Positions 5,562 to 23,386 of a stretch of DNA of 64,000 nucleotides are shown here, piece by piece (the stretch's first letter is position 1; each line of letters opens with the position of its first letter). The position numbers and the translations under genes are program-made. Origin of the DNA: Methanobacteriota archaeon (GTDB lineage: Archaea; Thermoplasmatota; E2; DHVEG-1); the NCBI GenBank assembly GCA_963769885.1, contig CAVYNH010000007.1, forward strand, positions 192,001-256,000, in the 5' to 3' direction. Below the pieces are notes generated by a model that saw only the letters and a list, made by a program, of their open reading frames with translations, was not told where the DNA came from and searched no databases.

Positions 5562-7760
5562 CTATGGTCCTGTCCAGAGTGCCAAGACATCTCCACCGCA
5601 ATCGGGGGTTTCTGCCTTCTTTGAAAGGTCTGATGGCTGTAGCTGCCAGACTCGATTCGTCGCCCCACCAATGTACAAATACACACCATCATAGCTGATC
5701 TCATCGATGGCACCACCATAATTGCTACTCTCTCCGACTTTCGTGAGATTCGTTGGCCAATACTTGAACACCTTCTGAGTGTTATGACCGCCCGCATAGA
5801 GATACGTGCCGTCGAAGCACAGGGTGTAGATGGTGCCTCCATATGGGGCGCTGTTGATTTCGGCTAAGTCAGATGCTCGATACTGTAACACCACCCCTCC
5901 CTGGTAGGGGCTGGTGGATCCAACGAATATGCTTGAACCTACCGCCAAGACGCTCCAAAAACGACCACCATCAACGTTAGCCACATGCCGCACGGTCATG
6001 TTCGAAGTCCAGAATTGGTAGATATAGCCATACCCCCAATCAAGCCCTCCGACAGCATACAGATAGCCTCCCTGGCAGCTCAAACCGCAGACGCCGTTAT
6101 CCGGCAGAACAATGCTTTCTTGTTTTTTCGTCAGGTTCGATGCCCAGAATTGAGCGACCCTATTGACAGAGGGCCAACCGCCAGCGTAGACATATGTTCC
6201 GTCACAGGCGAGGTCACTTACGATGCCCCAATTAGCGCTTACCGTTCTTATCGTAAGGTTTGACGGCCAGAGCTGCCAGATAGCCCCCTGGTTTCCGGCG
6301 GTATACAAATATTGGCCATCGCTGATAACATCGTTCAGTTTGGTCCCGTAGTTTCCACTCTCCAAATTCTTAGTGAGATCCTCCTTAGAATAGCGGGCTA
6401 TGGTTTGTGACTCCCCACCCACATATAAGTACGGATCGATTCCTTCCTTGATGACTGTGAAAGTGAAAACCTGATGGTTCGGATTGGTTCCATCAGTCGC
6501 ATTCAGATACCACGTGTATGTCGTGTCGTATTGAAGTAAGCTTGTTTGGATGGGAACACTGTACCGTCCATTACTGACGTGAGTGCCACTTCCCGAACCT
6601 ATTGCAGGATTCGTCTGTAATGTCCAGTCAATCGGATCATTTTGATGGTCATGAAGTGTAAAATTCAGGCTTGAGAGTGTAATCGGGACATAATACGCAC
6701 CGTTGATTGGAGCTGGATCGAGGATCTGAGGAGCGAAATATTCGGTGGTGAATGTGAAGGTCTTCGTGACTAAGTCTTTGGTATCGCTGACCTGGACCGC
6801 CCAGCTATATGTCGTCGAACTTTGGAGGCCGCTGATTGGGATTGTGTAGGTCCCATCGAGTTTCAGGTTGCCGTTCCCGCCGCCGACGTCCGGGGAGGTG
6901 GTGACGCTGTAGCTCATCCGGTCGCCGTCTGCGTCTTGGATGTGGAATTGGAGTTGGGTAGTGGTGATAGGGACGTAGGTTGCGCCGTTGAGGGGGTAGA
7001 CGGCAGAGATTTCAGGGGGGTTGTTGGGCGGCCATTGTTCGATGTAGTCTGCGGTGACTTTGGTGTAAGCCGCATATCCTATGAGGCCGTAGCCGCAGAG
7101 GGGCGGGAGGAACACGCTGAAGCCGATGCCCCAGAAGCCGAGGGCGAGGCCCTGCTGGCTTCCCTCAGCGATGAACCCGGTCCGGGAGACAAGGCCGCCG
7201 ACTGAGGTGATCCCGTATGAGGTCTTCCATCCGACGAACAGGCGGGGGATCGGGAGTTGGATAATAGGGATGAGCCTGGGGAGGATGATGATGGGGAAGG
7301 CGCTGCCGGACCCGGAGGTGGCGAAGTTACAGAGAAACTCTCGGTCGGTCGTCCCATAGGGGAGAAGCGAGGCGTGGGCTGCGGCGTGGGCGGCGAGGTG
7401 TTCGCCGTATTGCTGGAGCTGGGTGTGGACCTCGGTCGCGGTCATGCCTTTGGGGAGGAGGCCGAAGGCCTCCGCCTTAGCAAGGAGTTGCTGTTGGAGG
7501 GCTTGGGTTTTGGTGGATTGGGGATTGTCTGCGGTCGCCTTTGTATACTTGGTGAGAAGGGTCTGGAAATCTTGGGCGGCCTGCATTGTGACAGTGACGG
7601 TTTTTGGTGTACCACCGAAATAGCAGGTGATCTTCGTCACTTCGTTTTTCTCTTGCTCTATGGTGTTTGAGGCTTGGTGCGATATCCAGGAGGCTGGTAC
7701 AGTGGAGCTGGTCAATATGAGAATAATAATAACGATTGAGAGGAGTATCTTGTTTTTCAT
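5562..7760 (-). CDS. Secreted modular protein: signal peptide, N-terminal domain, two tandem Ig/FN3-like modules, C-terminal beta-propeller
   Basis: MKNKILLSIV signal peptide; duplicated P.NGA.YVPIT...TTY.W....D module; ~40-aa DG.YLY.GG repeats. Confidence 0.75.
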   Translation of the reverse strand: MKNKILLSIVIIILILTSSTVPASWISHQASNTIEQEKNEVTKITCYFGGTPKTVTVTMQAAQDFQTLLTKYTKATADNPQSTKTQALQQQLLAKAEAFGLLPKGMTATEVHTQLQQYGEHLAAHAAAHASLLPYGTTDREFLCNFATSGSGSAFPIIILPRLIPIIQLPIPRLFVGWKTSYGITSVGGLVSRTGFIAEGSQQGLALGFWGIGFSVFLPPLCGYGLIGYAAYTKVTADYIEQWPPNNPPEISAVYPLNGATYVPITTTQLQFHIQDADGDRMSYSVTTSPDVGGGNGNLKLDGTYTIPISGLQSSTTYSWAVQVSDTKDLVTKTFTFTTEYFAPQILDPAPINGAYYVPITLSSLNFTLHDHQNDPIDWTLQTNPAIGSGSGTHVSNGRYSVPIQTSLLQYDTTYTWYLNATDGTNPNHQVFTFTVIKEGIDPYLYVGGESQTIARYSKEDLTKNLESGNYGTKLNDVISDGQYLYTAGNQGAIWQLWPSNLTIRTVSANWGIVSDLACDGTYVYAGGWPSVNRVAQFWASNLTKKQESIVLPDNGVCGLSCQGGYLYAVGGLDWGYGYIYQFWTSNMTVRHVANVDGGRFWSVLAVGSSIFVGSTSPYQGGVVLQYRASDLAEINSAPYGGTIYTLCFDGTYLYAGGHNTQKVFKYWPTNLTKVGESSNYGGAIDEISYDGVYLYIGGATNRVWQLQPSDLSKKAETPDCGGDVLALWTGP

Positions 7761-8080
7761 ATGCTCGTCCTTCCTTTAACCCCGTAAATAAGAAGAATAT
7801 TCTCGTATTTATTTCTTTCCAAATGCTCAGATAAAGAACGGCGTGGAAACCCTTTGTGGAGGATGTCACGCTCTATATTCTTTTTACAATTTTTTAGTTT
7901 TTTTCTGATTCAATACGAGTTTACTCTTTCAATTGTGTGGAGGCAGTCTGGCGGTAACATGAAATTGGATCAGGGCTTTTCTTTTATACCCATAGTCGGA
8001 ATCTGTAATGATTTGTTTACAGATTTGATACCCGAATAAGTATTTTTAAATATCCCATGTCCGTTCACCCTTTCACTCCT

Positions 8081-8155
8081 GGGCCTGTAGGGTAGCTTGG
8101 TCCATCCTTTTAGCTTTGGGAGCTAGAGACTCCAGTTCAAATCTGGACAGGCCCA
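8081..8155 (+). tRNA. tRNA-Pro (anticodon TGG)
   Basis: Acceptor stem GGGCCTG/CAGGCCC+A; anticodon arm TTAGC-TTTGGGA-GCTAG; T-arm TCCAG-TTCAAAT-CTGGA; TTTTTAAA TATA box at ~8043-8050. Confidence 0.95.
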
Positions 8156-9256
8156 CTCCTTTTTCTCGGAGGGATTCTCCGAGACACCCCCGTTTTCTAT
8201 ACAAGTGTCTCTTTTCCCATCAGGCTTTCCCCCAACCAATGCTAGTGGTTGTCTGAGGGCCTGATGGAACAAATCCCGCCGTTTCCCCTTGACTTGGTTC
8301 TCTATTTCCTGTGAGAGAAAAACGTAGTGGTCTACGTTCTGGGTCTTCACGTGTCCGAGGCTGAGAGCAACCTTCTTGATGTCTTTCGTGCGGTCGTACA
8401 GGTAGGTCGCGTAGGTATGCCGCATGTCGTAGAGGATCGTGTCGTGGTCCTGCATGGTTTCCTTGAACACCGGCGCGATATGCCGTCTGAGGTACGCCCC
8501 GGTCACCCGCCGTCCGTTCGGCTCTAGGAACAGGGCGTTGCCGCTTCTTGCGTCGTCGTAGGCCAGGGGCCGCCATGTGTCCCGGTAATTCTTCGGAGTC
8601 CGGTAGACCCTGCTGGACAGCACCACGGGGTCCCAGGGGTAGACACGGCGGTTTTTCCCGTGTTTCTTATCCTCGGTCAATATGACGTACCCGGTCCCAT
8701 CCGGGTTAATCACCAAGTCGTTTACATCAAGGTTGCATATCTCAGATGGGGGCCGTGGCCCATAGTTGAATCCGAAGAACACGACGCTCTGGAGGAGCGC
8801 ATTCTCATAGGGGTCCGTGCTGTACTCTGCATGGTAGAGCCGGTTGACGATCGACGGCAGCGGGATCACGACGTCTCTATGGGCTTCTGAGGCTCGAATG
8901 CGGGGTGTTTTCACGTATTTATCCCAGTCTTCGGTGTACTGCCTGAATGCCTTCAGGAACATCAACACCGCTTTTTTCTCGTGGTACAACGCGTTCGGTG
9001 ACGCGCCCTCGTGTTCAATCCGGTAGTCCATGTGCCGCAGGAAATCCTCGGGCTTGAGGTCTCGGAAGTTGATGGGGCAGACATGGGTTTCCATCATCCG
9101 GGCGTACCGCAGATGCTTCTCGATGGTCGATAGTCCGAGTTCTTGGCGTACATGCGCGTGGACGGCGACGTCGTTGAAGGTCGCTGTCCGTGGGTCTAGG
9201 AAATAGGGGACGTCAGTTCGCCTGATATTGGTGAGTAGGCTTTGCAGGTCCTCCAT
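8123..9256 (-). CDS. int: Tyrosine recombinase/integrase
   Basis: GPRPPSEICNL (R), YDMRHTYAT (YxxR), LGH and DHY (catalytic Tyr); stop codon lies inside the tRNA; probable start ATG 9256 after GGGGA (ORF open to 9409). Confidence 0.92.
   Translation of the reverse strand: MEDLQSLLTNIRRTDVPYFLDPRTATFNDVAVHAHVRQELGLSTIEKHLRYARMMETHVCPINFRDLKPEDFLRHMDYRIEHEGASPNALYHEKKAVLMFLKAFRQYTEDWDKYVKTPRIRASEAHRDVVIPLPSIVNRLYHAEYSTDPYENALLQSVVFFGFNYGPRPPSEICNLDVNDLVINPDGTGYVILTEDKKHGKNRRVYPWDPVVLSSRVYRTPKNYRDTWRPLAYDDARSGNALFLEPNGRRVTGAYLRRHIAPVFKETMQDHDTILYDMRHTYATYLYDRTKDIKKVALSLGHVKTQNVDHYVFLSQEIENQVKGKRRDLFHQALRQPLALVGGKPDGKRDTCIENGGVSENPSEKKEWACPDLNWSL
8144..8155 (+). repeat. att core (attL), 3' end of tRNA-Pro
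   Basis: TGGACAGGCCCA, identical to 16529-16540. Confidence 0.85.
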
Positions 9257-9421
9257 GAGTTCCCCGGGTGGGGGTAATGTCGGGTCCAGTAGAGAGTGGC
9301 CTATCTGTCCTAAATTCTCGCAACTTTTTACACCTCCTCGCAGGTCAAACGATCTGCAAGGGTGTGAATCCTTTGAATCTATTTTAGGGTTTTCGTCGCT
9401 GGGTTTCAATTCTTCTGTACC

Positions 9422-11689
9422 TCACCCTGCTCTGAATCGTGATTTCGTTGTCACCGGCGGCTGTATGATCGTCGTCGATGTCGGCGTCCTGCCCGTCCGA
9501 GTCGTGACCTGTGTGCCTGGGACGAGGATGTGCGCGCCGGTCTTCCGGCTGATCACGTCCTGACTGGCACCGTTCGTGACTGAGAGGACACCGTTGGCGA
9601 TGCTGGCACCGAGACGTTTGCCCCAGTCCTCGACGCTCTGGCCATGCTCAAGCGTCGCATGAACATCTATTGAGACAGCGCAATTTATCACCCCAGACGG
9701 GCCGCCCTGGGCCACACCCGCTGGGACGACGTATTCGCCTTTGTGGACGATAGCGGCCCCCGTCTCTAGGATGCTGCCGCCTTCCTGAAGCCACGGCACC
9801 CGACCGAATAACCGGTCGGTGATCGGCGTCGACGTGCCGCCTACCGCGCTGACGCCTCCTACGTCCTGCCCGGTGAGCTCCAGCCATTCCCGGTACTTGT
9901 CGATGCTCGCCTGGACTGCTTTCACGTTGTCAACGCCGTACCATTTCAGCCACGCTTGAGCACCCTCAGAGCCGGGGAAGGCGGCCATAGTGGCCTCTAT
10001 CACGCTGATCTGCTGGGTTGTGGCGTCCTTTATCCTGGTGTTGAGCGCGGTGATGCTGTCGCCGTAGGCAGTCATAAGGAGTCCCTCGTGCTGGATACTC
10101 AAATCGAGCGACGAGATCTCCTGTTCGTAGGTGAACGCCCTGGTCTGCTGGGTGATATCCTGGGTTAGTCCGGTGCGTTCGAGCTCGGCCTGCATCTCCT
10201 GGATGCGCAGGCCGAGGTCCTGGTGTTGAAGCTCCTTGAGTTGAGCCTGTTGGTCTCGGTTGAGGCCATGCCGGGTGTCCGCGTTGTACTGCAGTTGCAT
10301 TTCCGCGATGCTGTTCTTAGTGAGTGCCATGCCTAGCGTGTTGATCGCGTCGTCCAGGACCCACGTCTGCTTCGTCTGGTCCTCAAGGCTCTTCAGGAAG
10401 TCGAGGCGGCCTTGGTCCTGGCTCATCTGTTGATTCAAGAGGGCCTGTTGCGAGGTGAGTTGCGGGTAGAGGTCGACGAGGTTCTGGATCTCGGTCCCGA
10501 GGTCCTTGGCGGCTCCCGCCATGTATTGGATCGGTTCGAGGCTCTGCGCGCTGGCGACGGCGGCTATCGCTTCTTTGATGCTGCCGCCGGCGAACAGGTT
10601 GATCGCGGGGAGGGTCGCTATCGTCTGGATGATCCGCGCGGGAAGGTCCAGCCAGCTGCCCATCGTTCGATATCCTGCCTCCCGTTGCTGTGTTTGTTTC
10701 TGGGTGACGAGGTCGGCGGTGTTCAGGTAATCCTTGTACTGCTGCAGAATCTCTTTTCCAGTCAACTTCGAGGTGTCGATGCCGCCGCCCGCTAGGATCG
10801 CCATGCCGGCCGCATAGCTCTGTACGCCTCCGACGAGGCTTTGGAATGCGCTGGCGTTCCCCGCGGTCGCCGTCTGAATCCTGTTAAGGATGCCTTCGAC
10901 GCCCATCGCCTTCAATACGAGACTGTCGTAGGCGATGCCCAAAGAGTTCATGGTCGCAACCTGGTCTTTCGACGGGCTGCTGAGGTTGCTGAGGACTTCC
11001 GTGAGCCCGCTGAACGCGCTCCTGGCTGGAAGGCCTTTCTCGGCCATGTCGCTGACCGCCGAGACCACCTGGTCGAGGCTCATGCCTGCCGCCTGCGCGA
11101 AAGGAGCAAGCCTTTGAATTTCGGTGCCCAGATCGGCCATAGAGATGTTTGTCGTCTGGTACGCCTGGGTGAGCAATTGGCCGACGTAGGCCGACGCGCT
11201 CGCGCTCAGGCTGAAGGCGTCCATCACGTCCGCCAGGGTTTTCGCGGCTGTCGTCTGATCCGTGAACGTCCTAAGGGAGAGCATCATGGACTCGGTGAGG
11301 AGCGTCATACTGTCCTGGATTCGGAACCCTGACTTCTCGATCTCCGTGAATGAGTCGGCGAGCTCCTGGATGCTTTTCCCGCCGCCGATGCTCAGGTTCT
11401 GGAGTTCTTTCTGAAGGTCTGGGAGGAGCGTCTTCTCCTGGTCGGTCAGGATGCTGCTTATCTTGAGCATCTCGGTCGAATAGCTGCGGTAGGATTGGAT
11501 GCTGTCCTCGATGCCCTGCGTCATGCTGTGGACGCCCTGCATGAGGTAGCCGATAGCCATATTCATGGCACTAAAGGCCGCGCCCATCGCCAAGCCTTGG
11601 ACTGAGAAGGCCTTGAATCTCTGTGCCGCTTGGTCCAGGACGCTGCTCATCTGGTCCCTGGCTTTTAAGTCCACACTGATCTCGGTCAT
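9422..11689 (-). CDS. Phage-type tail tape measure protein (TP901-like core)
   Basis: N-terminal ISVDLKARDQMSSVL; Ala/Gly-rich helical core (LAPFAQAAGMSLDQV...GL.A..A..GL...L..L..PSK.....M..LGI); coiled coil; C-terminal LQEGG....G.AIVHKGEYVVP motif. Confidence 0.85.
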   Translation of the reverse strand: MTEISVDLKARDQMSSVLDQAAQRFKAFSVQGLAMGAAFSAMNMAIGYLMQGVHSMTQGIEDSIQSYRSYSTEMLKISSILTDQEKTLLPDLQKELQNLSIGGGKSIQELADSFTEIEKSGFRIQDSMTLLTESMMLSLRTFTDQTTAAKTLADVMDAFSLSASASAYVGQLLTQAYQTTNISMADLGTEIQRLAPFAQAAGMSLDQVVSAVSDMAEKGLPARSAFSGLTEVLSNLSSPSKDQVATMNSLGIAYDSLVLKAMGVEGILNRIQTATAGNASAFQSLVGGVQSYAAGMAILAGGGIDTSKLTGKEILQQYKDYLNTADLVTQKQTQQREAGYRTMGSWLDLPARIIQTIATLPAINLFAGGSIKEAIAAVASAQSLEPIQYMAGAAKDLGTEIQNLVDLYPQLTSQQALLNQQMSQDQGRLDFLKSLEDQTKQTWVLDDAINTLGMALTKNSIAEMQLQYNADTRHGLNRDQQAQLKELQHQDLGLRIQEMQAELERTGLTQDITQQTRAFTYEQEISSLDLSIQHEGLLMTAYGDSITALNTRIKDATTQQISVIEATMAAFPGSEGAQAWLKWYGVDNVKAVQASIDKYREWLELTGQDVGGVSAVGGTSTPITDRLFGRVPWLQEGGSILETGAAIVHKGEYVVPAGVAQGGPSGVINCAVSIDVHATLEHGQSVEDWGKRLGASIANGVLSVTNGASQDVISRKTGAHILVPGTQVTTRTGRTPTSTTIIQPPVTTKSRFRAG

Positions 11690-11916
11690 GGCTCGTCTTC
11701 TTCCTCGCCGATGCTCACGTCCTCGTCGGTGATGAGCGTGTAGTCCTCAGGCTGAAAAACAATGGTGGCGAGGCCGACGCCGCCGAGGAGACACTCGACC
11801 TTCTCCCTGGTGACGGCAGGATCGAGATCATGCAAGGCGTTGTAGACCCTGGTCGCGTCAACCGGCGTCCGCACGTCGATCAGGACGCGTTCCACGAGAC
11901 CGCAAGGCTGGCTCAT
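11686..11916 (-). CDS. Hypothetical acidic protein coupled to TMP
   Basis: ATGA overlaps with both neighbouring genes. Confidence 0.6.
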   Translation of the reverse strand: MSQPCGLVERVLIDVRTPVDATRVYNALHDLDPAVTREKVECLLGGVGLATIVFQPEDYTLITDEDVSIGEEEDEP

Positions 11917-12572
11917 GCCACGGCTCCCTGGTCTTCCGTCTTCGAGTCAAGACCATGCTCCCGTTTTATCTGCTTTCGGAACTCTTCGCGGCTCATTTTC
12001 AGAGGCGTCGGCTGTGTGGTCTTTACCACGGGCGACCCCGCGCCAGGGGAGGACATCTGCCTTCTGAACTCGAAGGGGTCGCCTTTGTGGACGAACACGT
12101 CGCTGACGAACAGGTCTTCCGCAGCCATGTAAGAAGCGACATTGGGTTTCTTCCTGCCGTCCCGGATTTCGATGTTATGAAGCCGTAGAATCTGGCTGAT
12201 GCCTCGTACCCTCTCATTGGGCCGCATGTTTGTTGCGGTGAGAAGGCCCTTATTCGATATCCTGATTAAGGCTATCGCAAAACGCTCGGTGACGTCGCCT
12301 TCAAGGCAGCTTTTCTGAAGGTCGTCCCAGTATTGTTTTTCGACTATGTTGCGGGCTTGACCGACCTCAAACGCCTCTTTATCCCGTTTGGCTCGGAGGG
12401 CTTCTTTTTCCTCGGCGAGCCGTTTGAGTTCAGCGGCGGTGAGTTGGCTGGCGAGTTTCGTCTTCGTCTGGTCCCATTGCAACGCCGCGAGCTCTTCCGG
12501 GGTCTGATAGCCGCTCTCGGCCTGCTCTCTTCGTTCCTGTTCGATTCGTGCTTGTTGTTCTTTCTCATCCAT
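11913..12572 (-). CDS. Hypothetical protein with N-terminal coiled coil
   Basis: AGGAG RBS; 219 aa; operonic position. Confidence 0.7.
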   Translation of the reverse strand: MDEKEQQARIEQERREQAESGYQTPEELAALQWDQTKTKLASQLTAAELKRLAEEKEALRAKRDKEAFEVGQARNIVEKQYWDDLQKSCLEGDVTERFAIALIRISNKGLLTATNMRPNERVRGISQILRLHNIEIRDGRKKPNVASYMAAEDLFVSDVFVHKGDPFEFRRQMSSPGAGSPVVKTTQPTPLKMSREEFRKQIKREHGLDSKTEDQGAVA

Positions 12573-12579
12573 TTTTATC

Positions 12580-13077
12580 TCAACTCCTGATATTCCTCTT
12601 CTGTGTTGTCGCGGTAGTGATGGGTCGCAGGTCGTCCCTCATGGTTTCACCTGGACCCGTATATGAACTCTGACTGACTCTGTGACCGAGATACGGATCG
12701 TCGTCGGTGTCCTGGGAGTCCCGTGGCACGGTCCACCAGACCGTCCCATCCCGGGCGATGTCCACCCGCATGTAGCCCTTCACGTTTGATGAGCCGATGA
12801 TTGCGTTGTAGATCACGTCTGTGAGCGTGCGGCCTTCCGCATGGGACTCGAAGTGTTGGCCGCACGAGGGACACTGCCGGGGGATGCTCTGAATCCGGTG
12901 GATCTTCTGACATTTCAAACACATGATAACAAACGGCACGCCTCGCTTGACGACAGGTTGTTTTATCTCGATGAAATCCCGTAGGACACCGCAACGCGGG
13001 CAGTACCGCCGTGTGATGGGCTTGCGGGTCACGTAGATGGTCTCGCATTCCAAGCATTGCATCTTGATTTTAGGCAT
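12580..13077 (-). CDS. Double zinc-ribbon protein
   Basis: CLEC...CPRC and CLKC...CPSC; GGAGGAGG RBS; ATGCCTAA overlap with the upstream stop. Confidence 0.75.
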   Translation of the reverse strand: MPKIKMQCLECETIYVTRKPITRRYCPRCGVLRDFIEIKQPVVKRGVPFVIMCLKCQKIHRIQSIPRQCPSCGQHFESHAEGRTLTDVIYNAIIGSSNVKGYMRVDIARDGTVWWTVPRDSQDTDDDPYLGHRVSQSSYTGPGETMRDDLRPITTATTQKRNIRS

Positions 13078-13639
13078 GGTCCTCCTCCTCGTCGCCGTCG
13101 CCCGTGTACGGCACAAGGTCGTCTATATCTTCGTCCACGGGCGATTCCTGGGCACGTGGGGGCGTCATCGGCGTGCTGGTGGCCATCTTTCGCACCTCTC
13201 GCTGTTGATCGAGATCATGCAAGGCGTCAATCATAGCGTTGAATTCCGCAATGGTGGGTTTCTTGCGACATAAGACACAAGAGTCAGGTTCGGAAATCTT
13301 CACCTGTTCATGCCGTCCGAACTCAGTAGGATACTTGCGCTCCAGCAGCCATGCGCTTGCTTGCCATGAGCCGTTGTTGCTCGCCCTGGTGATGAGCGCG
13401 ATATGCCGTCTCTTGAACTCAGCTTCTCCTTTTCGCGTAGCGTTCACTAATTCCGCAAAAAGGCTGTCGGTGTTGTTGTCTGCATCGCTTGTGCCGATTC
13501 GCATCCAGTCGTAAAACGCGGTCTTCCCAACGCCCAAAAGCGCGCAGATGTCTTTCTTATTCGTCCCTTTTTTGACTTCCCGGTAGATCGTCGTTATCAT
13601 CTCGGGTGTGAGTCGGAGTTTCCGTCCTCGTTTAGCCGT
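13070..13639 (-). CDS. Terminase small subunit-like HTH protein (first ATG 13600; probable true start is ACG at 13639)
   Basis: GRKLRLTPE...ICALLGVGKTAFYDW (HTH)...FAELV...GEAE...SWQASAWLLERKYPTEFGR, a pattern typical of TerS-type proteins. Confidence 0.7.
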   Translation of the reverse strand, partial: TAKRGRKLRLTPEMITTIYREVKKGTNKKDICALLGVGKTAFYDWMRIGTSDADNNTDSLFAELVNATRKGEAEFKRRHIALITRASNNGSWQASAWLLERKYPTEFGRHEQVKISEPDSCVLCRKKPTIAEFNAMIDALHDLDQQREVRKMATSTPMTPPRAQESPVDEDIDDLVPYTGDGDEEEDHA

Positions 13640-13886
13640 AGCTGACCACGCTCCCCTGGAGTCGTTCCGTCATGGTGTCAACCTTGCTCGTGAGAAGCCT
13701 GTTCTGCCGCGCGAGGTCACAGAGTTCGTTCACTTGCTTCGCTACTAGTTCGTTCTTCATTTTGAGGAGCTCCCGGAGGCTTGCGATCTCATGCTCAAGG
13801 GCATCGATCCGGATGAACTGAAACTCCGTTTTCCGTAGGATTAACATTCCGTGTCCTCTAACTTCGACCCGTGGGCGTGTTTCCAC
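13632..13886 (-). CDS. Small coiled-coil protein
   Basis: Heptad pattern IDALEHEIASLRELLKMK; operonic position. Confidence 0.6.
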   Translation of the reverse strand: METRPRVEVRGHGMLILRKTEFQFIRIDALEHEIASLRELLKMKNELVAKQVNELCDLARQNRLLTSKVDTMTERLQGSVVSYG

Positions 13887-13940
13887 TTGCGGATAAAACC
13901 AGGTTCAAACTCCGGGTCCATCTCGCTGGGCATCATTTCG

Positions 13941-14879
13941 TTAGGTCCTCGCCTCGGCTGACGCCTGGGTTTGGCGTCGTTTGAGCATGGCTTCGGTGGC
14001 GTTCATCCAATCTTGGAGTCGTTTCGCCTCTTGTTTTTCCCGTTGTTCGCGGATTTCTATTATATAAGAAGTCTCGTTGTGGTCTTGGTGTTGTTGTCGG
14101 ATTTTGTCTCGGAGTATCTTGGAGAAGCGGATGAATATCTTGTAGAATCGTCCTTCGAGGTTGTGGAGGGCGTCCCATTGTTGTTTGAGGATGCCGTGGA
14201 GGTTGTGAGACTGCCTCTTGCCTCGTATCCAGTTGAATCCTTCTTTGGTCTTTTCGAGGAGTCTGGCGCGTCGTACTTCGAGGAGGCGGTAGAGGGTATG
14301 GAAGATGGCTGCTCGGATTTCGCTGGGGTCTCGTCGGCGGCGTTTGCTGACGTTGACGACGTTGATGGTGAAGATCTGGTGGTGCCGGGCTAGGGTGTTG
14401 AGTTCGAGGGGCGTGGTCTTCCCTTTGAGTTTCCCGGCGAGGAAGATGGTCATTGATGGTTTTTTGCCGGTGCGGTCGATGGGTGCTTTGTTGTTGTGGG
14501 TTTGCCCTGCTGTGAGTCCGGCGATGGTCCGGAGGTCTTCGCCGTAGTAGTAGGGTGTGGTGGCGAAGGCGACGAGGTGGTAGTGAAGGACGTTGTGTTC
14601 AGAGAAGGTCGGGAATTTGATCCATCGGACGGTGAGCGGCTGGTCGTCGTCGAGGTTTGCGGTGAAGATGCCGGTGAGTTCGTCGTCGTTGTATTGGCGG
14701 ACACCGATGATGCCTTCTGCCTCATGGTTCTGTTTTTTGACGACGTCTACGAGGCTTTCTTGGACGATGTCGAAGTGGTGTGCGTGAAGGCGGTTCTCTC
14801 GGTTGATGACGGTCTGCAGCTCCTGCCCGTAACTTTTATATCTTTGATTGTGTTTTATTTCTTGCAAAGTAGCTAGCAC
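13941..14879 (-). CDS. Hypothetical protein; possible replication protein (HUH-like HYH motif)
   Basis: 312-aa ORF; NVLHYHLVAF followed by a YYY cluster; the functional call is weak. Confidence 0.55.
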   Translation of the reverse strand: MLATLQEIKHNQRYKSYGQELQTVINRENRLHAHHFDIVQESLVDVVKKQNHEAEGIIGVRQYNDDELTGIFTANLDDDQPLTVRWIKFPTFSEHNVLHYHLVAFATTPYYYGEDLRTIAGLTAGQTHNNKAPIDRTGKKPSMTIFLAGKLKGKTTPLELNTLARHHQIFTINVVNVSKRRRRDPSEIRAAIFHTLYRLLEVRRARLLEKTKEGFNWIRGKRQSHNLHGILKQQWDALHNLEGRFYKIFIRFSKILRDKIRQQHQDHNETSYIIEIREQREKQEAKRLQDWMNATEAMLKRRQTQASAEART

Positions 14880-15020
14880 CTCTTTGTGTTATTGGCCCGG
14901 CGGTCACTCGCTGGGTCAGTATTGTTTTTGTTCTCTCCTCACCATTTTTTGGAGGCTAGGCGACCGGGATTCGCTCTCGGTCGCCGATGAGTGCATGTTT
15001 TCTTCAAAGGCAACTTCGGA

Positions 15021-15161
15021 TTATTGTTCGGGCGGCTCGAATTTTATGTGGATGCTTTCGTTCGGGTTTTCCCGAAGGTAGGACATGATCCCAGAACCCA
15101 CGATCCGCCTGCGGATCTCCTTGATTCGTTTCTTGTCTGCCTCAGATAGATTTTCAGTCAT
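15021..15161 (-). CDS. Small hypothetical protein (46 aa, MTENLSEADKKRIKEIRRR...)
   Basis: Read manually (below the ORF-track cutoff); AAGGAG RBS. Confidence 0.55.
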   Translation of the reverse strand: MTENLSEADKKRIKEIRRRIVGSGIMSYLRENPNESIHIKFEPPEQ

Positions 15162-15455
15162 TGTTTTTTTTCTCCTTTGATAGTTTATACTCTATGATTT
15201 TTTTAGCTAGAAATTCCCGGTCGGCTACCAGGGACAACAGGTAGTCGTGCCAAGTCTGCGTTTTGCAGTCTTTGGCTCGCTCCAGCCTTCGGAATTCAGC
15301 GTCGGTGAAGGTTTCATTTAAGTTCCTCATTTTTTTTACCTCGCTACCTTAGCTACCTTAGTCTCTACCTCATAGTAGCAAACTGTATTTTTCCGGACGT
15401 TTTTCTTTATATACTGTCCAGAAGAAAAAGCAAGGGAAATTAAAAAAAGGGGGGC

Positions 15456-15605
15456 CTAGCGTGTGCGGCGGCAGTCGCCGTCGAGGTGCACGCGTCGGCC
15501 TTCGATGAGTTGGTAACTGTTTGGGTCGATGGGGCCGCCGCATTTTGGGCAGCGTTTGTTCCGTGGGCGGCTCTGTCGTCTTGTGCTGGGGTTGTAGACG
15601 CCCAC
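15456..15605 (-). CDS. Small zinc-finger protein (49 aa)
   Basis: GTG start; RCPKCGGPI...VHLDGDC (CxxC...HxxxxC). Confidence 0.6.
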   Translation of the reverse strand: MGVYNPSTRRQSRPRNKRCPKCGGPIDPNSYQLIEGRRVHLDGDCRRTR

Positions 15606-15607
15606 GA

Positions 15608-15775
15608 TTAGCACCCCGGTTGTGTGCTGATCTCGCGGGGTTCCGTGCCCATGCTGACGTCGCCGACCGTGATATTGAGCCGGGTGCAGCCGAGGGCCTC
15701 CAGGGCCGCCTGGACGGCGTCCAGGGCACTGAGTTCGTCGCCTGGGACCAGGCCGGTGACGCGTAGGCTGTTCAT
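15608..15775 (-). CDS. Small hypothetical protein (55 aa, MNSLRVTGLVPGDELSALDAVQAALEALGC...)
   Basis: Read manually; ATGA overlap with the upstream gene; GAGGT RBS. Confidence 0.55.
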   Translation of the reverse strand: MNSLRVTGLVPGDELSALDAVQAALEALGCTRLNITVGDVSMGTEPREISTQPGC

Positions 15776-16137
15776 TCGACCTCTCGGATCTCGACCGGCG
15801 TGACGATGAGGCGGCTGCCGACGATCTTGACGCTGCAGTAATCGGTCGGATGCCCTGCCGCGAGGACTTTTTCCTCGAGGGTCTGCAGCCAGTTCTGCTT
15901 GAGGACCTCGTCGATGTCATCCCAAGCGACTATCTGCGTGGGCTCGAAGTCGAGCTCGCCGGTGATCGTGACCGTCCCCTCGTTCCCATCGCCTATGGTT
16001 TCCCGCATGGGTGGTACCTGCGTCGGCATTTTGGGCATTCGACTGGGTTCGGGCTTCTCGGCCACCACTGATGCTTGCAGTGGGGGCATTCTTCCATCAA
16101 TGATTTTCTTTTTGCCATTCACTATATCACCGGGCAT
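15772..16137 (-). CDS. Hypothetical protein, first gene of the element's leftward operon
   Basis: 121 aa; immediately downstream of the AT-rich divergent promoter. Confidence 0.6.
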   Translation of the reverse strand: MPGDIVNGKKKIIDGRMPPLQASVVAEKPEPSRMPKMPTQVPPMRETIGDGNEGTVTITGELDFEPTQIVAWDDIDEVLKQNWLQTLEEKVLAAGHPTDYCSVKIVGSRLIVTPVEIREVE

Positions 16138-16154
16138 ATGTATGACACATCAGT

Positions 16155-16205
16155 ATTTAATTATTACGTGTAAATTACGTAATACGTAATATTAAAAACG
16201 TAATC
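16155..16205. promoter_or_regulatory. Divergent promoter with ATTACGT/ACGTAAT operator repeats
   Basis: ATTACGT 16163-16169, palindrome ATTACGTAAT 16174-16183, ACGTAAT 16184-16190 and 16198-16204, in an AT-rich spacer between divergent genes. Confidence 0.7.
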
Positions 16206-16223
16206 AGGGTTTCTCCCTATGGG

Positions 16224-16376
16224 ATGCCAAGACCATCGAAAAAGAAGAAGCCGGAGCCGGTGATGACGATCACGATGCCGCCGGAAATCAGGGAAAAGCT
16301 ACGTCGGATAGCGAAGAAAGAGAAAAGGAGCAAAAGTTCGATGATTCATTACCTCATCGAGCATTACCAAGAATAG
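16224..16376 (+). CDS. Ribbon-helix-helix (CopG/Arc-like) regulator, 50 aa
   Basis: Read manually: MPRPSKKKKPEPVMTITMPPEIREKLRRIAKKEKRSKSSMIHYLIEHYQE; alternating beta strand plus two helices with an S-x-S motif. Confidence 0.8.
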   Translation: MPRPSKKKKPEPVMTITMPPEIREKLRRIAKKEKRSKSSMIHYLIEHYQE

Positions 16377-16528
16377 AAAAAGAGAGGAGACGTCCCCGCC
16401 TGGATGCCATGGGCAGGGACGCCCCCCATGTTTTAGTGAGGAAGAGAACTGACAACCCTATTTTTTGGAGACTACGTGTTTTTTCTGCAGGTGTCTCCGA
16501 TTTCCTCTCCTGTTGACCAGACCACCTT

Positions 16529-16540
16529 TGGACAGGCCCA
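16529..16540 (+). repeat. att core (attR), duplicated tRNA-Pro 3' end
   Basis: TGGACAGGCCCA followed by a pyrimidine trailer, located between the RHH gene and the stop of the host C25 peptidase gene. Confidence 0.85.
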
Positions 16541-16602
16541 TGTCCTTTTCTCCCCCACTTTTTACACAATAATGAAAAGAAGAACGGATTGGAAATCGGG
16601 GG

Positions 16603-19248
16603 CTAAGTGAGACCGACCCAGAAGAGGAACACGAAGCCGGTCGCTGTTTTTGAGTGTTCCGGGGCGTCGTCTGCTTTCACGGTTACGGTGATGAGGATCG
16701 AACCAAGGCCGATGATTGGCATTGCCTGGATGGCCTGTTGCGTCCCGGCTTCAAGAGAATCCAGGGTTCCAGTAACAGATCTTCCTTTTAGGATAATTCC
16801 GCCAGTTAGATTGACGATCCAGGAGACATTTGTGGCTGGTCCCGTCCCGTTATTTGACAGCTCGGTGGCCACTCCGAAGAATCCTCCGGTGAGGGGACCG
16901 AGGGTGAGGTCTGGTTTGTATTCATTGATCGTGACTGTCAAAGGTGAAGACCAGTTGCTTTGGAATCCGACGGTGTCCTTGGCTTTGACCTTCACGTCAT
17001 AGGTGCCGGGGGTGACCCAGGTGAAGGAGACTTCGACGGTCGCGCCTGAGTCGAACGGCCCCGCCCAGTCCAGTATTGATGAGCCGAACTGCCATTGGTA
17101 CCAGACTTGATCGCCGTCAGGGTCAGTGGTGTTCGTTGAGTAGGTGTACTCCACATTTGTTTTTCCCGCGGTGGCTCCTGCTGGTTTCATGGGCGTTGCT
17201 GGCGGGTTGTCATCTCCGACGATGACGGTTGCGGTGTTCTCTGAAGGGAGGTAGTTCTGTTTTGTGACGGTGACAGACATGCTGCCTGGTGTTCCCGGGG
17301 AGGGGGTGAAGCTGGCGACGCCGTTTTCATTGGTCATGCCGACGAGGTAGACTTCGGAGCCTTTCCAGAGGCAGACGGTCGCTTGGTTCACGGGGCTTCC
17401 GTTGGCGGTGACGGTGACGGTGAAATCAGTTGTTCCGATGGGGAGCTGTGTGGGGTAGTTGACGGCGAGCGTGCCGGGGTCGGCGAGCCAGATCGGCAGC
17501 TCCGGGTCTCCGAGGAGCGTGAGCTCGGTGAAGATGTAGCGGTAGTAATCGTCGATATTGACGGCATCGTTCTTATGGTCGGTGAAGGCTTCGCCGAGTC
17601 GGTAGTAGCCTTGGTTGAAGAGGGAGCGGAAGAAGTAGGTGTCGAACTTCATGGAAAGGGTGTTGTAGGATCCGGCGCTGTACCATCCGTAGCGGCTGTT
17701 ACCGATGAAGGCGATGCCACCGCCGTTGCTGTCACGGACGAAGTGTTCGGCGATGCAGTTGGAGGCGTCGAAGGCGCACGGGTCACAGCCCATGCTGTAG
17801 AAGATGCCTTGTTTGTTGCCGTTATTGAGGGCGTCCATGTCGCTGGGGCTGAGGCCCCAGTTGTGGTTGAGGTAGCCGGTGCCCATGTAGTCGTCGGCGG
17901 AGTGGTCGGCGTGGTTCATGAGGTTCTGGCCGGCGTTGATGGCGGCGATGACGTTGGTCTTATGGTTGCCGGTCTGGCTGTCGTAGACGTTGGTCATGGT
18001 CCAGCTGGCGGGGATATAGGTGTTGTCAATGGTGATCTTGCATTGTTCGGCGTGGGTGCTGGAGTCGAGGTCGAAGCCGAACATGGCGGCTTTGGTGGCG
18101 TAGTTCGTCAGGGGCGGTGATTTCTCATAGGTGAGGATCTTGTTGATGAAGGTGCCGATCTGGCCGGTGCCGGTGCCTGGTCCGGTGACGGAGGCGCGTC
18201 CGACATTGACTTCGCAGAGCCAGTCGCTGTCGAAGTCCGCGTAATAGGTGTCGTTGGGGACGGGGTCAGGGTCGACGCTGGAGAAGGTCCGGGTGCTGCA
18301 GGGGACGGTGCCGGTGTCGCCGCCGAGGAGGAAGAAGGTGGCGCCCCAATTGGTATAGGCGTCTTGGATGAAGGCTCTGATTTTTTCTTGGTTTGTTCCG
18401 GTGTAGCCGCCTTGGTTGTAGATCCAGTCGGTGGTGACGATGGTGGCGGGGACGCCTTTTTCGGTCTTCCAGTCAGCGAGAGGCTGGAAGGCGGTGACCC
18501 AGCTGGAGGAGGTGATTATGACGTAGTCGTAGTCTCCGGCGGGGACGCCGGTGGTGTGGGGCCGGGGGTCGGTCTGAAGTTGGACGTTATTGGTATTGAT
18601 GACCATGTTTTTTACATGACTGGTGAGGGTCTGTCGGTCCGTGGTTGTTATCCGGCGGGGGAGGTAGTCTCCGTAGGTGTAGCCGGGGGTGGTTTGGATG
18701 GTGAGAGTGACGGAGGTGAGGAGTCGGAGTTGGTGGGCGTGTCCGACGTAGCGGAGAGGGTAGACGGTGAGTTCGGCCATGGCTTGGCCGACGAGGTCGG
18801 ATTGTCCCGTGAGGGTGATGAATGTGTTGGGGTAGGGGCTGGTGGATTGGTAGACGGTGGGGTCGGGGGCGGCGAAGGTGGTGTCTTTGGAGTTCATGGT
18901 TGTTGGCGGTTGGGCGGGGTAAATGGTGTAAGTGCCTTGGAGGGTCTGTTCATGGGTGTCGGTGACTTTGACGGCGGTGGCGGTGACGTTGGGGGGGAGG
19001 GCGATGCGGATGGGGACAGTGGGGAGCATGGGTTTGGCGGGGTCGGTGAGGAGGCTGCCGTTTTGGATGCTGACGCGGTTGTAGCCGTTGATGGTGTCGA
19101 AAGTAAAATCGGATTGGGTGAAGGTGAGGGTCACCGTGATGTTATCGGTGGGGTCTGCGCGGGCTATGTTATGGGTGAAAAATGGGCAGGTGAGAAGGGT
19201 GCTGATGGCGAGTGCGACAGCGAGTGATTTAATAAAGGTCGCGTGGAT
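16603..19248 (-). CDS. Secreted gingipain-like C25 cysteine peptidase with propeptide, Ig and PKD domains and a C-terminal tail domain
   Basis: YVIIT, LLGGD, DTYYAD, VGRA, NHADH, SMGC and LLGDPEL motifs; the signal peptide lies upstream of GTG 19134 in the same open frame (candidate ATC start 19248). Confidence 0.88.
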   Translation of the reverse strand: MHATFIKSLAVALAISTLLTCPFFTHNIARADPTDNITVTLTFTQSDFTFDTINGYNRVSIQNGSLLTDPAKPMLPTVPIRIALPPNVTATAVKVTDTHEQTLQGTYTIYPAQPPTTMNSKDTTFAAPDPTVYQSTSPYPNTFITLTGQSDLVGQAMAELTVYPLRYVGHAHQLRLLTSVTLTIQTTPGYTYGDYLPRRITTTDRQTLTSHVKNMVINTNNVQLQTDPRPHTTGVPAGDYDYVIITSSSWVTAFQPLADWKTEKGVPATIVTTDWIYNQGGYTGTNQEKIRAFIQDAYTNWGATFFLLGGDTGTVPCSTRTFSSVDPDPVPNDTYYADFDSDWLCEVNVGRASVTGPGTGTGQIGTFINKILTYEKSPPLTNYATKAAMFGFDLDSSTHAEQCKITIDNTYIPASWTMTNVYDSQTGNHKTNVIAAINAGQNLMNHADHSADDYMGTGYLNHNWGLSPSDMDALNNGNKQGIFYSMGCDPCAFDASNCIAEHFVRDSNGGGIAFIGNSRYGWYSAGSYNTLSMKFDTYFFRSLFNQGYYRLGEAFTDHKNDAVNIDDYYRYIFTELTLLGDPELPIWLADPGTLAVNYPTQLPIGTTDFTVTVTANGSPVNQATVCLWKGSEVYLVGMTNENGVASFTPSPGTPGSMSVTVTKQNYLPSENTATVIVGDDNPPATPMKPAGATAGKTNVEYTYSTNTTDPDGDQVWYQWQFGSSILDWAGPFDSGATVEVSFTWVTPGTYDVKVKAKDTVGFQSNWSSPLTVTINEYKPDLTLGPLTGGFFGVATELSNNGTGPATNVSWIVNLTGGIILKGRSVTGTLDSLEAGTQQAIQAMPIIGLGSILITVTVKADDAPEHSKTATGFVFLFWVGLT

Positions 19249-19325
19249 TAGGAATACCCCCTTTTTGATTCTAATACGTCTTAGTGGATATATATAGTTT
19301 CCTGGAGTGCCCCAGAAGGAGGGGG

Positions 19326-20795
19326 CTAGGGTTGTTTCTTGGGCGTGATTGTGATGTTTTCGGTGATGTCGGCGAGGCGTTTGGCGAGGGCGATGTAGTG
19401 GTCAATGTCGATGGCGGTATTGATGACGTGTTTGGCGCCGTCGGGGCTGCCGCCGCCGTGCATGCAGCCGGGGACGCCGCTGCCGATGGTGAGCCATTCG
19501 ATGAGTCGGGCGATCTTGGCGCGGGTCTCGCCGGTGCAGTTGGCGGTGAGGTATTTTTTGAGGAGGTCGCCGTAGCGGGGGTCGTTGAGGTCTGTGCAGC
19601 TGGGGAGGCAGCCGGTTTCGGCGATGCCGCCGGCGATCTCCTGGGCAAGGCGTTTGGTTTCGTAGGGGAGGGTGGCGACGTGGACTTTGTTGATGTTGGA
19701 GAGGAGTTGGCTGGGGATCCAGACACCGGAGGGATGCTTGGTGCCGAGGACGCCGGCCGCGATGCCCATACCAAACGTGGTCTCGTTGTTGATGACCATC
19801 TGGGTGAGTTTGTCGCGGAAGGTTTTTTCGCTGAGGCCGTTGGCGCGGGCCATGAGGGCGGCGGCGCCGACCATGACGTCGCCTTGGCCGGCGACGCAGC
19901 CGCCGATAGCGGCTCGATAGGGGGCGATGAAGTTCATGACGGCGGCGGCGGTGTGATCTGCTTCGCCGTTGAGGAAGACGCGGTCGGTGGGGATGAAGAC
20001 GTCGTCGAAGAGGAGGTAGGCTTGGGTGATGCCGCCGATACTGACGGGGTTGTCGAATCCTTCTTCGAGCTCGCGGGTGTCGCTGGGGCGGCGGGCTTCG
20101 ACGATGGTGAGGCCTTGGATGTCGCGGGGGATGGCGAAGCTGACGGCGTAGGCTTTGTCTGGTTCTTTGTAGCCGGAGCCTGGCATGATGAAGAGTTCGT
20201 TGGCGGCGGCGACGCCGCAGATCATGACTTTGGCGCCGCGGACGGTGATACCGTCCTTGGTTTCGTTGCTGATGTGGAGGCTGAGGTCGGGGTCTTTCTG
20301 CTGGCTGGGAGTTTTGCTGCGGTCTCCTTTGGGGTCGGTGAGGGCGCCGGCGAGGGTGATGTCGCGGGTTTGGGCGTCCTTAAGCCAGGCGCGGAGGCGG
20401 TCGTGGTAGTGGGTGTGTTTGGCTTTGTCGATGTCGTAGGTGGCGGCCCACATGGCGTTGAGGGCGTTGAAGCCGGCGCAGCGTCCACCGGTGCAGGTGC
20501 CGGTGAGGTTGAACATGAGGCGTTTCATTTTGAGGTTGGCGATCATGTCCTCAGGGGATGAAATGATGGAGAGATAGCGGCTTACACGGGTGTTAGTGAG
20601 AGGGCTGATGGTGGTGAGGATATCCTGGTACTTGGGGTCGAGAGAAGCTTGGAAGATCTGGGCGTGGCCTTCGACGGTGCGTCTGGTGGCGGGGTGGGTG
20701 GTGACGTCTTTGATGAGTTCGCCGAATTTGTAGATGTTGGCCCGCATTTGTTGAAGGCTGCGTTTGTATTCCTCTGGTGTCTTCATTGAGTTCAC
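19326..20795 (-). CDS. Divergent 4-hydroxybutyryl-CoA dehydratase (AbfD)/HpaB-fold family protein
   Basis: LTDPKGDRS, VRGAK, GGC and MHGGGSP motifs; several catalytic positions substituted. Confidence 0.8.
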   Translation of the reverse strand: MNSMKTPEEYKRSLQQMRANIYKFGELIKDVTTHPATRRTVEGHAQIFQASLDPKYQDILTTISPLTNTRVSRYLSIISSPEDMIANLKMKRLMFNLTGTCTGGRCAGFNALNAMWAATYDIDKAKHTHYHDRLRAWLKDAQTRDITLAGALTDPKGDRSKTPSQQKDPDLSLHISNETKDGITVRGAKVMICGVAAANELFIMPGSGYKEPDKAYAVSFAIPRDIQGLTIVEARRPSDTRELEEGFDNPVSIGGITQAYLLFDDVFIPTDRVFLNGEADHTAAAVMNFIAPYRAAIGGCVAGQGDVMVGAAALMARANGLSEKTFRDKLTQMVINNETTFGMGIAAGVLGTKHPSGVWIPSQLLSNINKVHVATLPYETKRLAQEIAGGIAETGCLPSCTDLNDPRYGDLLKKYLTANCTGETRAKIARLIEWLTIGSGVPGCMHGGGSPDGAKHVINTAIDIDHYIALAKRLADITENITITPKKQP

Positions 20796-20927
20796 CTTTG
20801 TTTAATGCTCCCTTATGTCTGTATTAACGAGGGTAAAGAGAGGTTATTGAATAAATGTCGCCCTTTGCAAAGTCGGATAGTGTTATTAAAGGGAAGGTTG
20901 TTCTAAGATTGAAAGGAGGATCTATCT

Positions 20928-22862: not shown

Positions 22863-23386
22863 ACCCTTAACTTTAATTCCCATTCGCACCAGTTGTCGGG
22901 CTGGTGGGGGTCGGGGGGGCAATGAGCGCAGGTGAGCTGAAGGGCGGGGTTGAGTTCGTGGAAGAAGGCGGTGAGGAAGCCGAGGCGGACGGGTTTGCAG
23001 CCGAATTCGGTGAGTCCTTTGGAGAGCCTGGTGGTCTGGACGCGACAGCGGCGGTTGCGGATGACGGCGTTGATCTTGTCGATTTCGACTTCTTTGTCTT
23101 CGAGGTCGAGGGCCCAGCCGGTGAACTGTAAGAGTTTCATCGCGGTCGGGACATCGATGGTCTTGGGTTGGAAAAATTCTTTGAGCTTGAGGGCCTCGAT
23201 TTTACCCATGACGCTCCAAACTTTGGCATCGATCTCGGTGGCGGTTTCTGTGCCGTATTCTTCTTCGATGCCGAGGAAGTAGAGGCCGTCGACCGCCCAG
23301 AGGTTCCGAAGCTGCATGAAGAGAAATTCGGTCTGTTTTTCTGCGGGAAGCTCTGCCAGCAATTTTCTATCGAGGGCTCGAGTCAT
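22859..23386 (-). CDS. DUF6125-like protein
   Basis: W.AVDGLYF..IEE.YG, CRVQ..R...G...F.C and CPPD......CEW motifs. Confidence 0.7.
   Translation of the reverse strand: MTRALDRKLLAELPAEKQTEFLFMQLRNLWAVDGLYFLGIEEEYGTETATEIDAKVWSVMGKIEALKLKEFFQPKTIDVPTAMKLLQFTGWALDLEDKEVEIDKINAVIRNRRCRVQTTRLSKGLTEFGCKPVRLGFLTAFFHELNPALQLTCAHCPPDPHQPDNWCEWELKLRV

Follow-up and report, generated by a model that had tools for sequence, protein, structure and literature searches.

The window analysed here is a 64-kb stretch of an archaeal contig (C7:192001-256000), taken from a genome of 2.09 Mb that is 92% complete. It contains an element, hereafter E1, of 8,385 bp between its terminal repeats (window 8144-16540), a discrete unit that is integrated at the 3′ end of a tRNA-Pro gene by its own tyrosine integrase. 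E1 encodes homologues of two virion-assembly proteins of tailed viruses, a small terminase subunit (TerS) and a tail tape measure protein (TMP), and has no recognisable head genes. We tentatively read E1 as an integrative element of plasmid or island type that acquired these two genes from tailed archaeal viruses and parasitises such a virus as its satellite, a reading that we favour while granting it slightly less than an even chance. Somewhat more doubtful is the specific proposal that E1 is a functional satellite which joins, on a plasmid-type archaeal backbone of only 8.4 kb, two strategies known from bacteria: the redirection of packaging by TerS, in the manner of PICIs (phage-inducible chromosomal islands) and SaPIs (Staphylococcus aureus pathogenicity islands), and the replacement of TMP, in the manner of the PICI-like elements (PLEs) of Vibrio.

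Borders and insertion site of E1

E1 is bounded by the only two exact copies in the window of the 12-bp sequence TGGACAGGCCCA, one of which is the 3′ end of tRNA-Pro(TGG) (Table 1). Allowing up to one mismatch brings the number of matches in the window to 3, where 0.43 would be expected; a count of 3 was not attained in any of 100 shuffles. The tRNA-Pro gene is 95% identical to that of G015, a genome of the same genus, and similarity between the window and G015 ends at 8155. G015 retains the order CAAX protease, tRNA-Pro, C25 peptidase, HpaB, and nothing of E1 was found at its syntenic tRNA-Pro site. After attR comes a T, the same base that natively follows tRNA-Pro in G015. The exact repeat pair, together with this synteny without E1, bears out the 8.4-kb unit bounded by a duplicated tRNA-Pro 3′ end that was originally predicted. 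In G015 another gene, of 663 aa, follows tRNA-Pro, and the site is therefore not cleanly empty. The comparison shows that the tRNA-Pro spot is a variable insertion point, and it gives direct synteny support to the left edge of E1 only.

Just upstream of tRNA-Pro, a 732-aa open reading frame (ORF; window 5562-7760) is missing from the corresponding stretch of G015, so that both sides of the tRNA gene are variable. Here ~0.8 kb in G015 replaces ~2.5 kb of the window.

The integrase gene runs into the tRNA gene and attL with its last 11 codons, and its catalytic domain is complete before the attachment (att) site. The reading frame comprises 428 aa in the integrated state versus 440 aa in the circular form, and the last residues alone change. 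A split integrase of the SSV type was rejected, because the catalytic domain ends before att and only C-terminal residues differ. Integrases sharing 37-55% identity with the E1 enzyme are found at tRNA genes in several other members of this archaeal family, and the cargo beside those of G016, G115 and contig C4 (below) is unrelated to that of E1. The closest (55%) is in G016, at the same tRNA-Pro(TGG), in a genome without a match to the E1 TMP or TerS. Another relative, in G115, is accompanied by cargo comprising an HTH/IrrE-like M78 peptidase gene, a DUF4411 gene and surface-protein genes.

The genome that holds E1 has a further small element on contig C4 (~128500-133550; L042 ~8500-13541), at tRNA-Arg(CCG). 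Its integrase is 28% and its ribbon-helix-helix (RHH) protein 63% identical to those of E1. Its cargo consists of ORFs of 300 aa and 188 aa, with no virion genes.

Virion genes, backbone and a second capsid-less element

The 755-aa product of E1, proposed in the original prediction to be a TMP, scores above the cut-offs of PF10145 (84.4 bits versus 33.2) and TIGR01760 (73.4 bits versus 28.8), and it is matched by 19 PHROG TMP families. Its best relative, P0001 (754 aa), aligns with it end to end at 27% identity and 100% coverage; the gene is therefore not truncated. Segments found by tblastn cover residues 1-237 and 436-755, and a C-terminal match to phrog_15478 spans residues 606-661. These matches indicate a genuine, full-length TMP, with the expected conserved helical domain at the N-terminus, long coiled region and conserved motif at the C-terminus, and the proposal stands. 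Homologues in G093 and G027 lie inside long colinear virus-like arrays that have nothing else in common with E1. The contig that carries the closest TMP relative, L009, has uninformative PHROG annotation (no or weak matches).

Two small genes are coupled to the TMP gene on its upstream side. The adjacent 76-aa protein has no family match in Pfam, PHROGs, PADLOC or TIGR-type profile scans, and its predicted complex with the TMP scored 0.00, which says nothing for or against binding. The 219-aa protein has no homologue by word search in 5.8 billion clusters. Its AlphaFold2 (AF2) model from the single sequence contains helices only, at low confidence (pLDDT 53), and its look-alikes in the ESM Atlas are only unnamed viral clusters, with recognition below threshold. 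By position, the 219-aa protein could be a TMP chaperone or scaffold. A −1 frameshift of the gpG/gpGT type joining the 219-aa and 76-aa ORFs was considered and rejected: the −1 frame is open for 31 nt only and there is no slippery heptamer.

The second virion gene is that of a 176-aa protein which matches phrog_4102 (E 4.6e-24) over profile positions 22-152 of 166. It matched no Pfam TerS family at E ≤ 0.1, and a PDB sequence search gave nothing below E 0.5. Its relatives occupy the TerS slot before the gene for TerL, the large subunit of terminase. On the phage contig L033 the order is P0012, GP88, TerL, with the TerS relative upstream of TerL; in the isolated Methanobacterium virus PhiF3 the relative is ORF8, directly before ORF9, the TerL gene. 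In G059 (contig C176), from the same archaeal family as E1, a relative with 34% identity heads an array of TerS, TerL, portal, protease and major capsid protein (MCP) genes. Judged by its profile match and by the position of its relatives, the E1 protein is an intact, full-length TerS homologue, as had been proposed. The array on G059:C176 (L055 1-17415) is a complete head module of a tailed virus or provirus, including a protease-MCP-like protein, and is followed by unrecognised tail genes. It is helpful as a reference for helpers of the sort that E1 might exploit.

No other part of a head or packaging machinery was recognised. Families of TerL, portal, capsid, protease, tail-tube and baseplate proteins (Pfam, PHROGs) match no E1 ORF at E ≤ 0.1. 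For the head and packaging genes this absence is meaningful, because in the G059 provirus the same PHROG library does recognise TerL, portal, protease and MCP. In the whole 92%-complete genome, too, PF05065 gave no capsid match, and the only clear TerL match lies in the neighbouring element E2 (below). The unassigned ORFs of E1 encode 312, 219, 178, 121, 84 and 76 aa and shorter products. None of them looks like a capsid or portal protein: the model of the 312-aa protein has an RNase H-like core, and the others are of at most 219 aa. For the 219-aa protein this result is of low confidence. Nor is there debris of lost genes. The TerS and zinc-ribbon genes overlap, the 219-aa/76-aa and 76-aa/TMP gene pairs overlap by 4 nt each (ATGA), the TMP gene is separated from the integrase gene by 12 nt, and no gene fragments are visible in the operon. 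Moreover, no close relative proved to be a complete provirus of which E1 could be a deletion derivative. On all these points the original prediction, of a tightly coupled element without capsid genes or their remains, was upheld.

It was not upheld for the 312-aa protein, which had been listed as a possible Rep. The family is rare, with 15 relatives among 1.84 billion representatives, and its conserved motifs are RW(V/I)K(I/F)PTF and TIFL(S/A)GK (alignment A1). A rolling-circle Rep of the HUH type was rejected: the family alignment shows neither conservation of the 'HYH' of the E1 protein nor a conserved Tyr motif. The AF2 model from an alignment of 14 sequences (pLDDT 82) has an RNase H-type core, β1β2β3-α-β4-α-β5-α, between long helices. 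Foldseek gave weak matches to the cores of retroviral integrase and Hermes (E ~0.008) and to unnamed viral proteins (E 4e-4), with no HK97 capsid match; a wide VIA-align search gave coiled-coil matches to the C-terminal helix only, and a PDB sequence search returned nothing below E 0.5. A nuclease of the DDE/RNase H type fits the core weakly, and no acidic residues, those of a triad included, are conserved. The gene belongs to the backbone of E1; a role in replication or maintenance is our guess.

The relatives of the 312-aa protein adjoin integrase, RHH or HNH genes on small contigs (all ≤7.1 kb), and no TerS or TMP gene lies beside them on those contigs. The non-virion genes of E1 (integrase, RHH, 312-aa) are those of small non-viral integrative elements. 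Because these backbone genes recur in such elements, E1 reads as an island or plasmid backbone that gained virion genes: it looks like a mosaic of an island- or plasmid-type backbone and two virion genes acquired from tailed viruses.

A second capsid-less element, E2, lies in the same genome ~21 kb upstream of E1, outside the window (C7:166622-179481; L003 16622 to L004 9481). It is 12.86 kb long, bordered by a 19-bp repeat of a tRNA-His 3′ end, and encodes an integrase, a 619-aa BNR propeller, a 734-aa TMP, a D5-type primase-helicase, a 181-aa protein and a 419-aa TerL, with no capsid or portal gene. Like E1, it is an archaeal tRNA-integrated element with an integrase and a terminase gene, no capsid and a TMP of similar length. 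It differs in having TerL and the primase-helicase where E1 has TerS only and the 312-aa protein. The two TMPs are ~24% identical at both ends. That two unrelated backbones in one genome should each keep an intact TMP and one terminase subunit, without a head, is hard to explain by random decay.

TMP length sets the length of the tail at ~0.15 nm per residue. The 755-aa TMP of E1 would by this measure correspond to a tail of ~113 nm and the 734-aa TMP of E2 to one of ~110 nm; one may speculate that such similar lengths are compatible with the use of one type of helper by both elements. An IS200-like transposase gene lies just past the right end of E2.

Satellite reading and its alternatives

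If E1 is a satellite, its life cycle might run as follows. The integrated element would be held silent by an RHH switch until infection by a helper virus, or its induction, switches on the leftward operon, whereupon E1 would excise and replicate. The E1 TerS would then bind a site on E1 DNA and recruit helper TerL, leading E1 DNA into helper capsids, where the 8.4-kb DNA would probably be packed as multimers. The E1 TMP, perhaps with the two small proteins coupled upstream of it, would replace helper TMP in tails that are otherwise built by the helper. The use of such a swap may lie in DNA entry or in the evasion of TMP-directed exclusion, with a lower yield of helper as a possible side effect. 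Gene content and integration can be read from the sequence; every dynamic step of this scheme is one that we infer. Neither a helper, nor close relatives of like layout, nor evidence of excision, replication or packaging was found.

Several observations weigh against a satellite. No helper virus was identified in the genome that holds E1; a lytic helper would anyway be outside it. Other elements combining integrase, TerS and TMP, for which the original prediction proposed a search, did not turn up in 118 genomes of the order or in public contig collections; searches for E1-like elements through the TerS, the TMP and the 312-aa family gave nothing, or contigs <3 kb only. The nearest relatives of the TMP and TerS are 27-34% identical, too distant to measure purifying selection. 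Fragments of both E1 and its flanks occur only in one low-depth run from freshwater sediment (X1, ~3x, Logan contigs), in which no contig spans att, a result that speaks neither for nor against excision or a coverage excess. In E1 itself, a pac site was not identified, the repeat scans having yielded nothing that could be interpreted, and no primase, helicase or Rep family was detected in Pfam, PHROGs and further profile scans. Lastly, Krupovic et al. read the thaumarchaeal element NitKor-E1, which has TerS, TerL and an integrase, as a probable relic (PMC6563490). The predicted satellite of a tailed archaeal virus stands as regards the discrete unit at a tRNA, the real TerS and TMP and the lack of head genes, whereas neither its helper nor any element of like layout was found.

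Some of these points fit the first alternative, that E1 is a cryptic relic of a tailed provirus, or a recombinant of a provirus and an integrative element, which lost its head and most tail genes and retains TerS and TMP as leftovers without a current role. Just two virion genes are left, E1 stands alone in the genomes and contigs searched, where no family of similar elements was found, TMP homologues in related genomes sit in long, complete virus-like arrays, and NitKor-E1 has been interpreted in this way. We nonetheless consider a relic unlikely. TerS and TMP are full length and free of frameshifts, and to reach their present arrangement two or more clean deletions would be needed, with translational coupling at every resulting junction and no fragment of a gene left behind. 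Moreover, the non-virion genes come from small non-viral elements and not from proviruses, and E2 repeats in the same genome the pattern of a TMP and a terminase subunit without a head.

The virion genes could instead be weapons. On this second alternative E1 is a defence island that keeps TerS and TMP as decoys, poisoning the packaging and tail assembly of infecting tailed viruses by superinfection interference, and is itself not packaged. Blockers of tail assembly or packaging are known on satellites and islands, among them Rta of PLE11 (PMC12987554) and the Tai systems (PMC11364771), and relatives of the E1 integrase are accompanied by genes of toxin-antitoxin-like and surface proteins, as is typical of islands. 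However, no E1 protein convincingly matches a PADLOC defence family, and a complete 755-aa TMP with a conserved C-terminal motif exceeds what a decoy needs. We give a pure defence island still less credence than a relic. Interference is in any case compatible with a satellite, as in PLEs, which are transduced and also interfere with the helper.

That E1 is an autonomous miniature virus with a capsid, portal and packaging ATPase diverged beyond recognition is most improbable: many archaeal virus proteins do escape profiles, such as those of the G059 tail region and of L009 (no or weak PHROG matches), but the unassigned ORFs of E1 are all too small for a portal or TerL, the 312-aa model is RNase H-like without a Foldseek HK97 match, the 219-aa model is all-helical, and 8.4 kb is less than the smallest known tailed-virus genomes (11.6 kb; PMC13669383).

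A near parallel to the satellite that we propose for E1 is provided by the Vibrio PLEs. These are likewise small, integrated and without capsid genes, and have their own tape measure gene. Every one of them has tmp and tac genes and assembles chimeric tails (PMC12987554, Nature 2026). The TMP of the PLE, with the tail assembly chaperone (TAC) and BhuB, is built into helper-made tails and needed for transduction; virions of PLE11 hold the PLE TMP, exclude that of ICP1 and have tails 10 nm shorter, and deletion of PLE tmp cuts transduction by 96-99% (PMC12987554). PLEs differ from E1 in being bacterial and in having a RepA_N replicon, a TAC that can be recognised and a gene for the baseplate hub. 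E1, for its part, has TerS on another backbone, and neither a TAC nor a hub can be recognised in it; kinship in sequence is not expected.

With PICIs and SaPIs, E1 shares an integrase, a small island bounded by att sites, a divergent regulator and its own TerS without TerL. The TerS of a SaPI redirects helper TerL to the pac site of the island. No homologues of Pri-Rep, AlpA, Ppi or Cpm were detected in E1, whose host is archaeal; it is also smaller than PICIs (8.4 kb versus ~10-18 kb) and carries a TMP, which classical PICIs lack. Nearer to a mirror image are putative satellites of E. coli, ~13 kb in length, which resemble E1 in being integrated at tRNA genes and in having a tyrosine integrase, a putative TMP and few tail genes, but which have a capsid and decoration protein and no terminase genes, the reverse of E1 (PMC10448857).

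Among archaeal elements, pSSVx, pSSVi and the haloarchaeal SRCEs likewise combine a plasmid-type backbone with an incomplete virion module from a helper (bioRxiv 10.1101/2025.02.15.638363). They differ in that they parasitise spindle-shaped viruses and carry either the MCP of such viruses or an AAA+ ATPase, whereas the virion genes of E1 are those of Caudoviricetes. NitKor-E1, of Ca. Nitrosopumilus koreensis, is like E1 integrated at a tRNA, with integrase and terminase genes and no capsid genes (PMC6563490); unlike E1, which has TerS only, it has TerL.

The original prediction knew of no such element in archaea and asked that the literature on TMP-bearing satellites be checked. A strategy wholly unknown would be too strong a claim, since bacterial examples are already in print: besides the PLEs, Barth, Dunham and Seed noted TMP genes in putative E. 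coli satellites in 2023 (PMC10448857), and tmp genes occur in other putative satellites and some cf-PICIs (PMC12987554, Extended Data Fig. 10). For archaea, the virus satellites that we found in print are pSSVx and pSSVi, of spindle-shaped viruses, with SRCEs proposed as more (bioRxiv 10.1101/2025.02.15.638363) and one putative Asgard element added by a 2026 preprint, and we found no TMP-bearing satellite of a tailed archaeal virus described in the literature. New here are the archaeal setting and the pairing of a TMP with a packaging module of TerS only; satellites of the capsid-less kind are known from bacteria.

If the satellite reading is true, E1 would extend the parasitism of PICIs and PLEs to the third domain, with packaging specificity and the tail ruler both stolen, and E1 and E2 together would show that capsid-less hijacking of Caudoviricetes virions arose independently in Archaea. 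Moreover, TMP-bearing capsid-less elements recur, twice in this genome, which makes the question of why they keep their own tape measure testable across domains. To our knowledge, almost no cultured virus-host systems exist for Thermoplasmatota, the phylum to which the host of E1 belongs; TerS, TMP and the att sites of such a satellite would be tractable handles for a search for helpers there.

Gene order, control region and chromosomal surroundings

The features of E1 are collected in Table 1. The string of genes on the minus strand with a divergent RHH gene, and its tight spacing, agree with the order originally listed. The start of the zinc-ribbon gene is probably the ATG near 13077. Those ORFs of the leader block that were scanned had no family matches in Pfam, PHROGs or PADLOC. 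The half-sites of the control region are probably the RHH operator, to judge from their sequence, and the RHH gene with these palindromic half-sites has the look of a simple genetic switch.

Table 1. Features of E1 and its insertion site (window coordinates).
Feature	Position	Strand	Evidence
tRNA-Pro(TGG), integration target	8081-8156	+	ARAGORN; single tRNA in window
attL core TGGACAGGCCCA, tRNA-Pro 3′ end	8144-8155	+	exact-match search
Tyrosine integrase, 428 aa, TTG start	8123-9409	-	PF00589 E 1.3e-7; phrog_1 E 5.6e-13
TMP, 755 aa	9422-11689	-	PF10145, TIGR01760, phrog_1533 E 6.7e-27
76-aa acidic protein, ATGA-coupled to TMP gene	11686-11916	-	no family matches
219-aa orphan, predicted all-helical	11913-12572	-	single-sequence AF2 model
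Double zinc-ribbon protein, 178 aa	12580-13116	-	weak matches, several Zn-ribbon families
TerS homologue, 176 aa; N-terminal helix-turn-helix, central helices, acidic tail	13070-13600	-	phrog_4102 E 4.6e-24
84-aa coiled-coil protein	13632-13886	-	weak coiled-coil family matches
312-aa protein, rare family	13941-14879	-	AF2 model, alignment A1
Leader block: ORFs of 121, 55, 58 and 46 aa and a possible Zn-ribbon ORF	15021-16137	-	ORF list
AT-rich divergent control region	16138-16223	.	four ACGTAAT/ATTACGT half-sites at 16165-16204
Divergent RHH (CopG/Arc-like) regulator, 50 aa	16224-16376	+	PF07878 E 6.6e-8; phrog_3431 E 5.2e-9
attR core, exact 12-bp copy of TGGACAGGCCCA	16529-16540	+	repeat family D4

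Exact direct repeats of 16-21 nt join non-homologous genes of E1 (8473-8488/13396-13411, 9735-9750/12079-12094 and 11820-11840/13207-13227). Each of these three pairs encodes the same short peptide in both genes: RRHIA (integrase, TerS), VHKG (TMP, 219-aa protein) and ALHDLD (76-aa protein, TerS). Across the genome, 21 of 243 segments of equal size hold at least 3 repeats of at least 16 nt, so that the repeats of E1 are unusual without being extreme. Neither CRISPR spacers nor short matches to E1 were found in its own genome, and a 37-nt match to E1 (86%) in G089 was rejected as a CRISPR spacer, since it is not within a repeat array.

The genes that flank E1 are ordinary chromosomal ones: an aIF2/EF-Tu-type GTPase, a CAAX protease, a C25 peptidase, HpaB, ETF, an acyl-CoA dehydrogenase and a methylmalonyl-CoA mutase. 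The AT skew of E1 (8000-16500) is strongly negative, as it is in the adjacent host genes on the minus strand (16500-20500), and the strong positive GC skew of those host genes is not found in E1. This pattern may bear on residence time or on the level of transcription. Further along the window, a block of low G+C content (20500-23000; 41-44% versus ~58-60% around it) coincides with the gene of a 644-aa PQQ/beta-propeller surface protein (20928-22862), which was probably acquired recently. Propeller genes like this one are cargo of the integrase island in G115.

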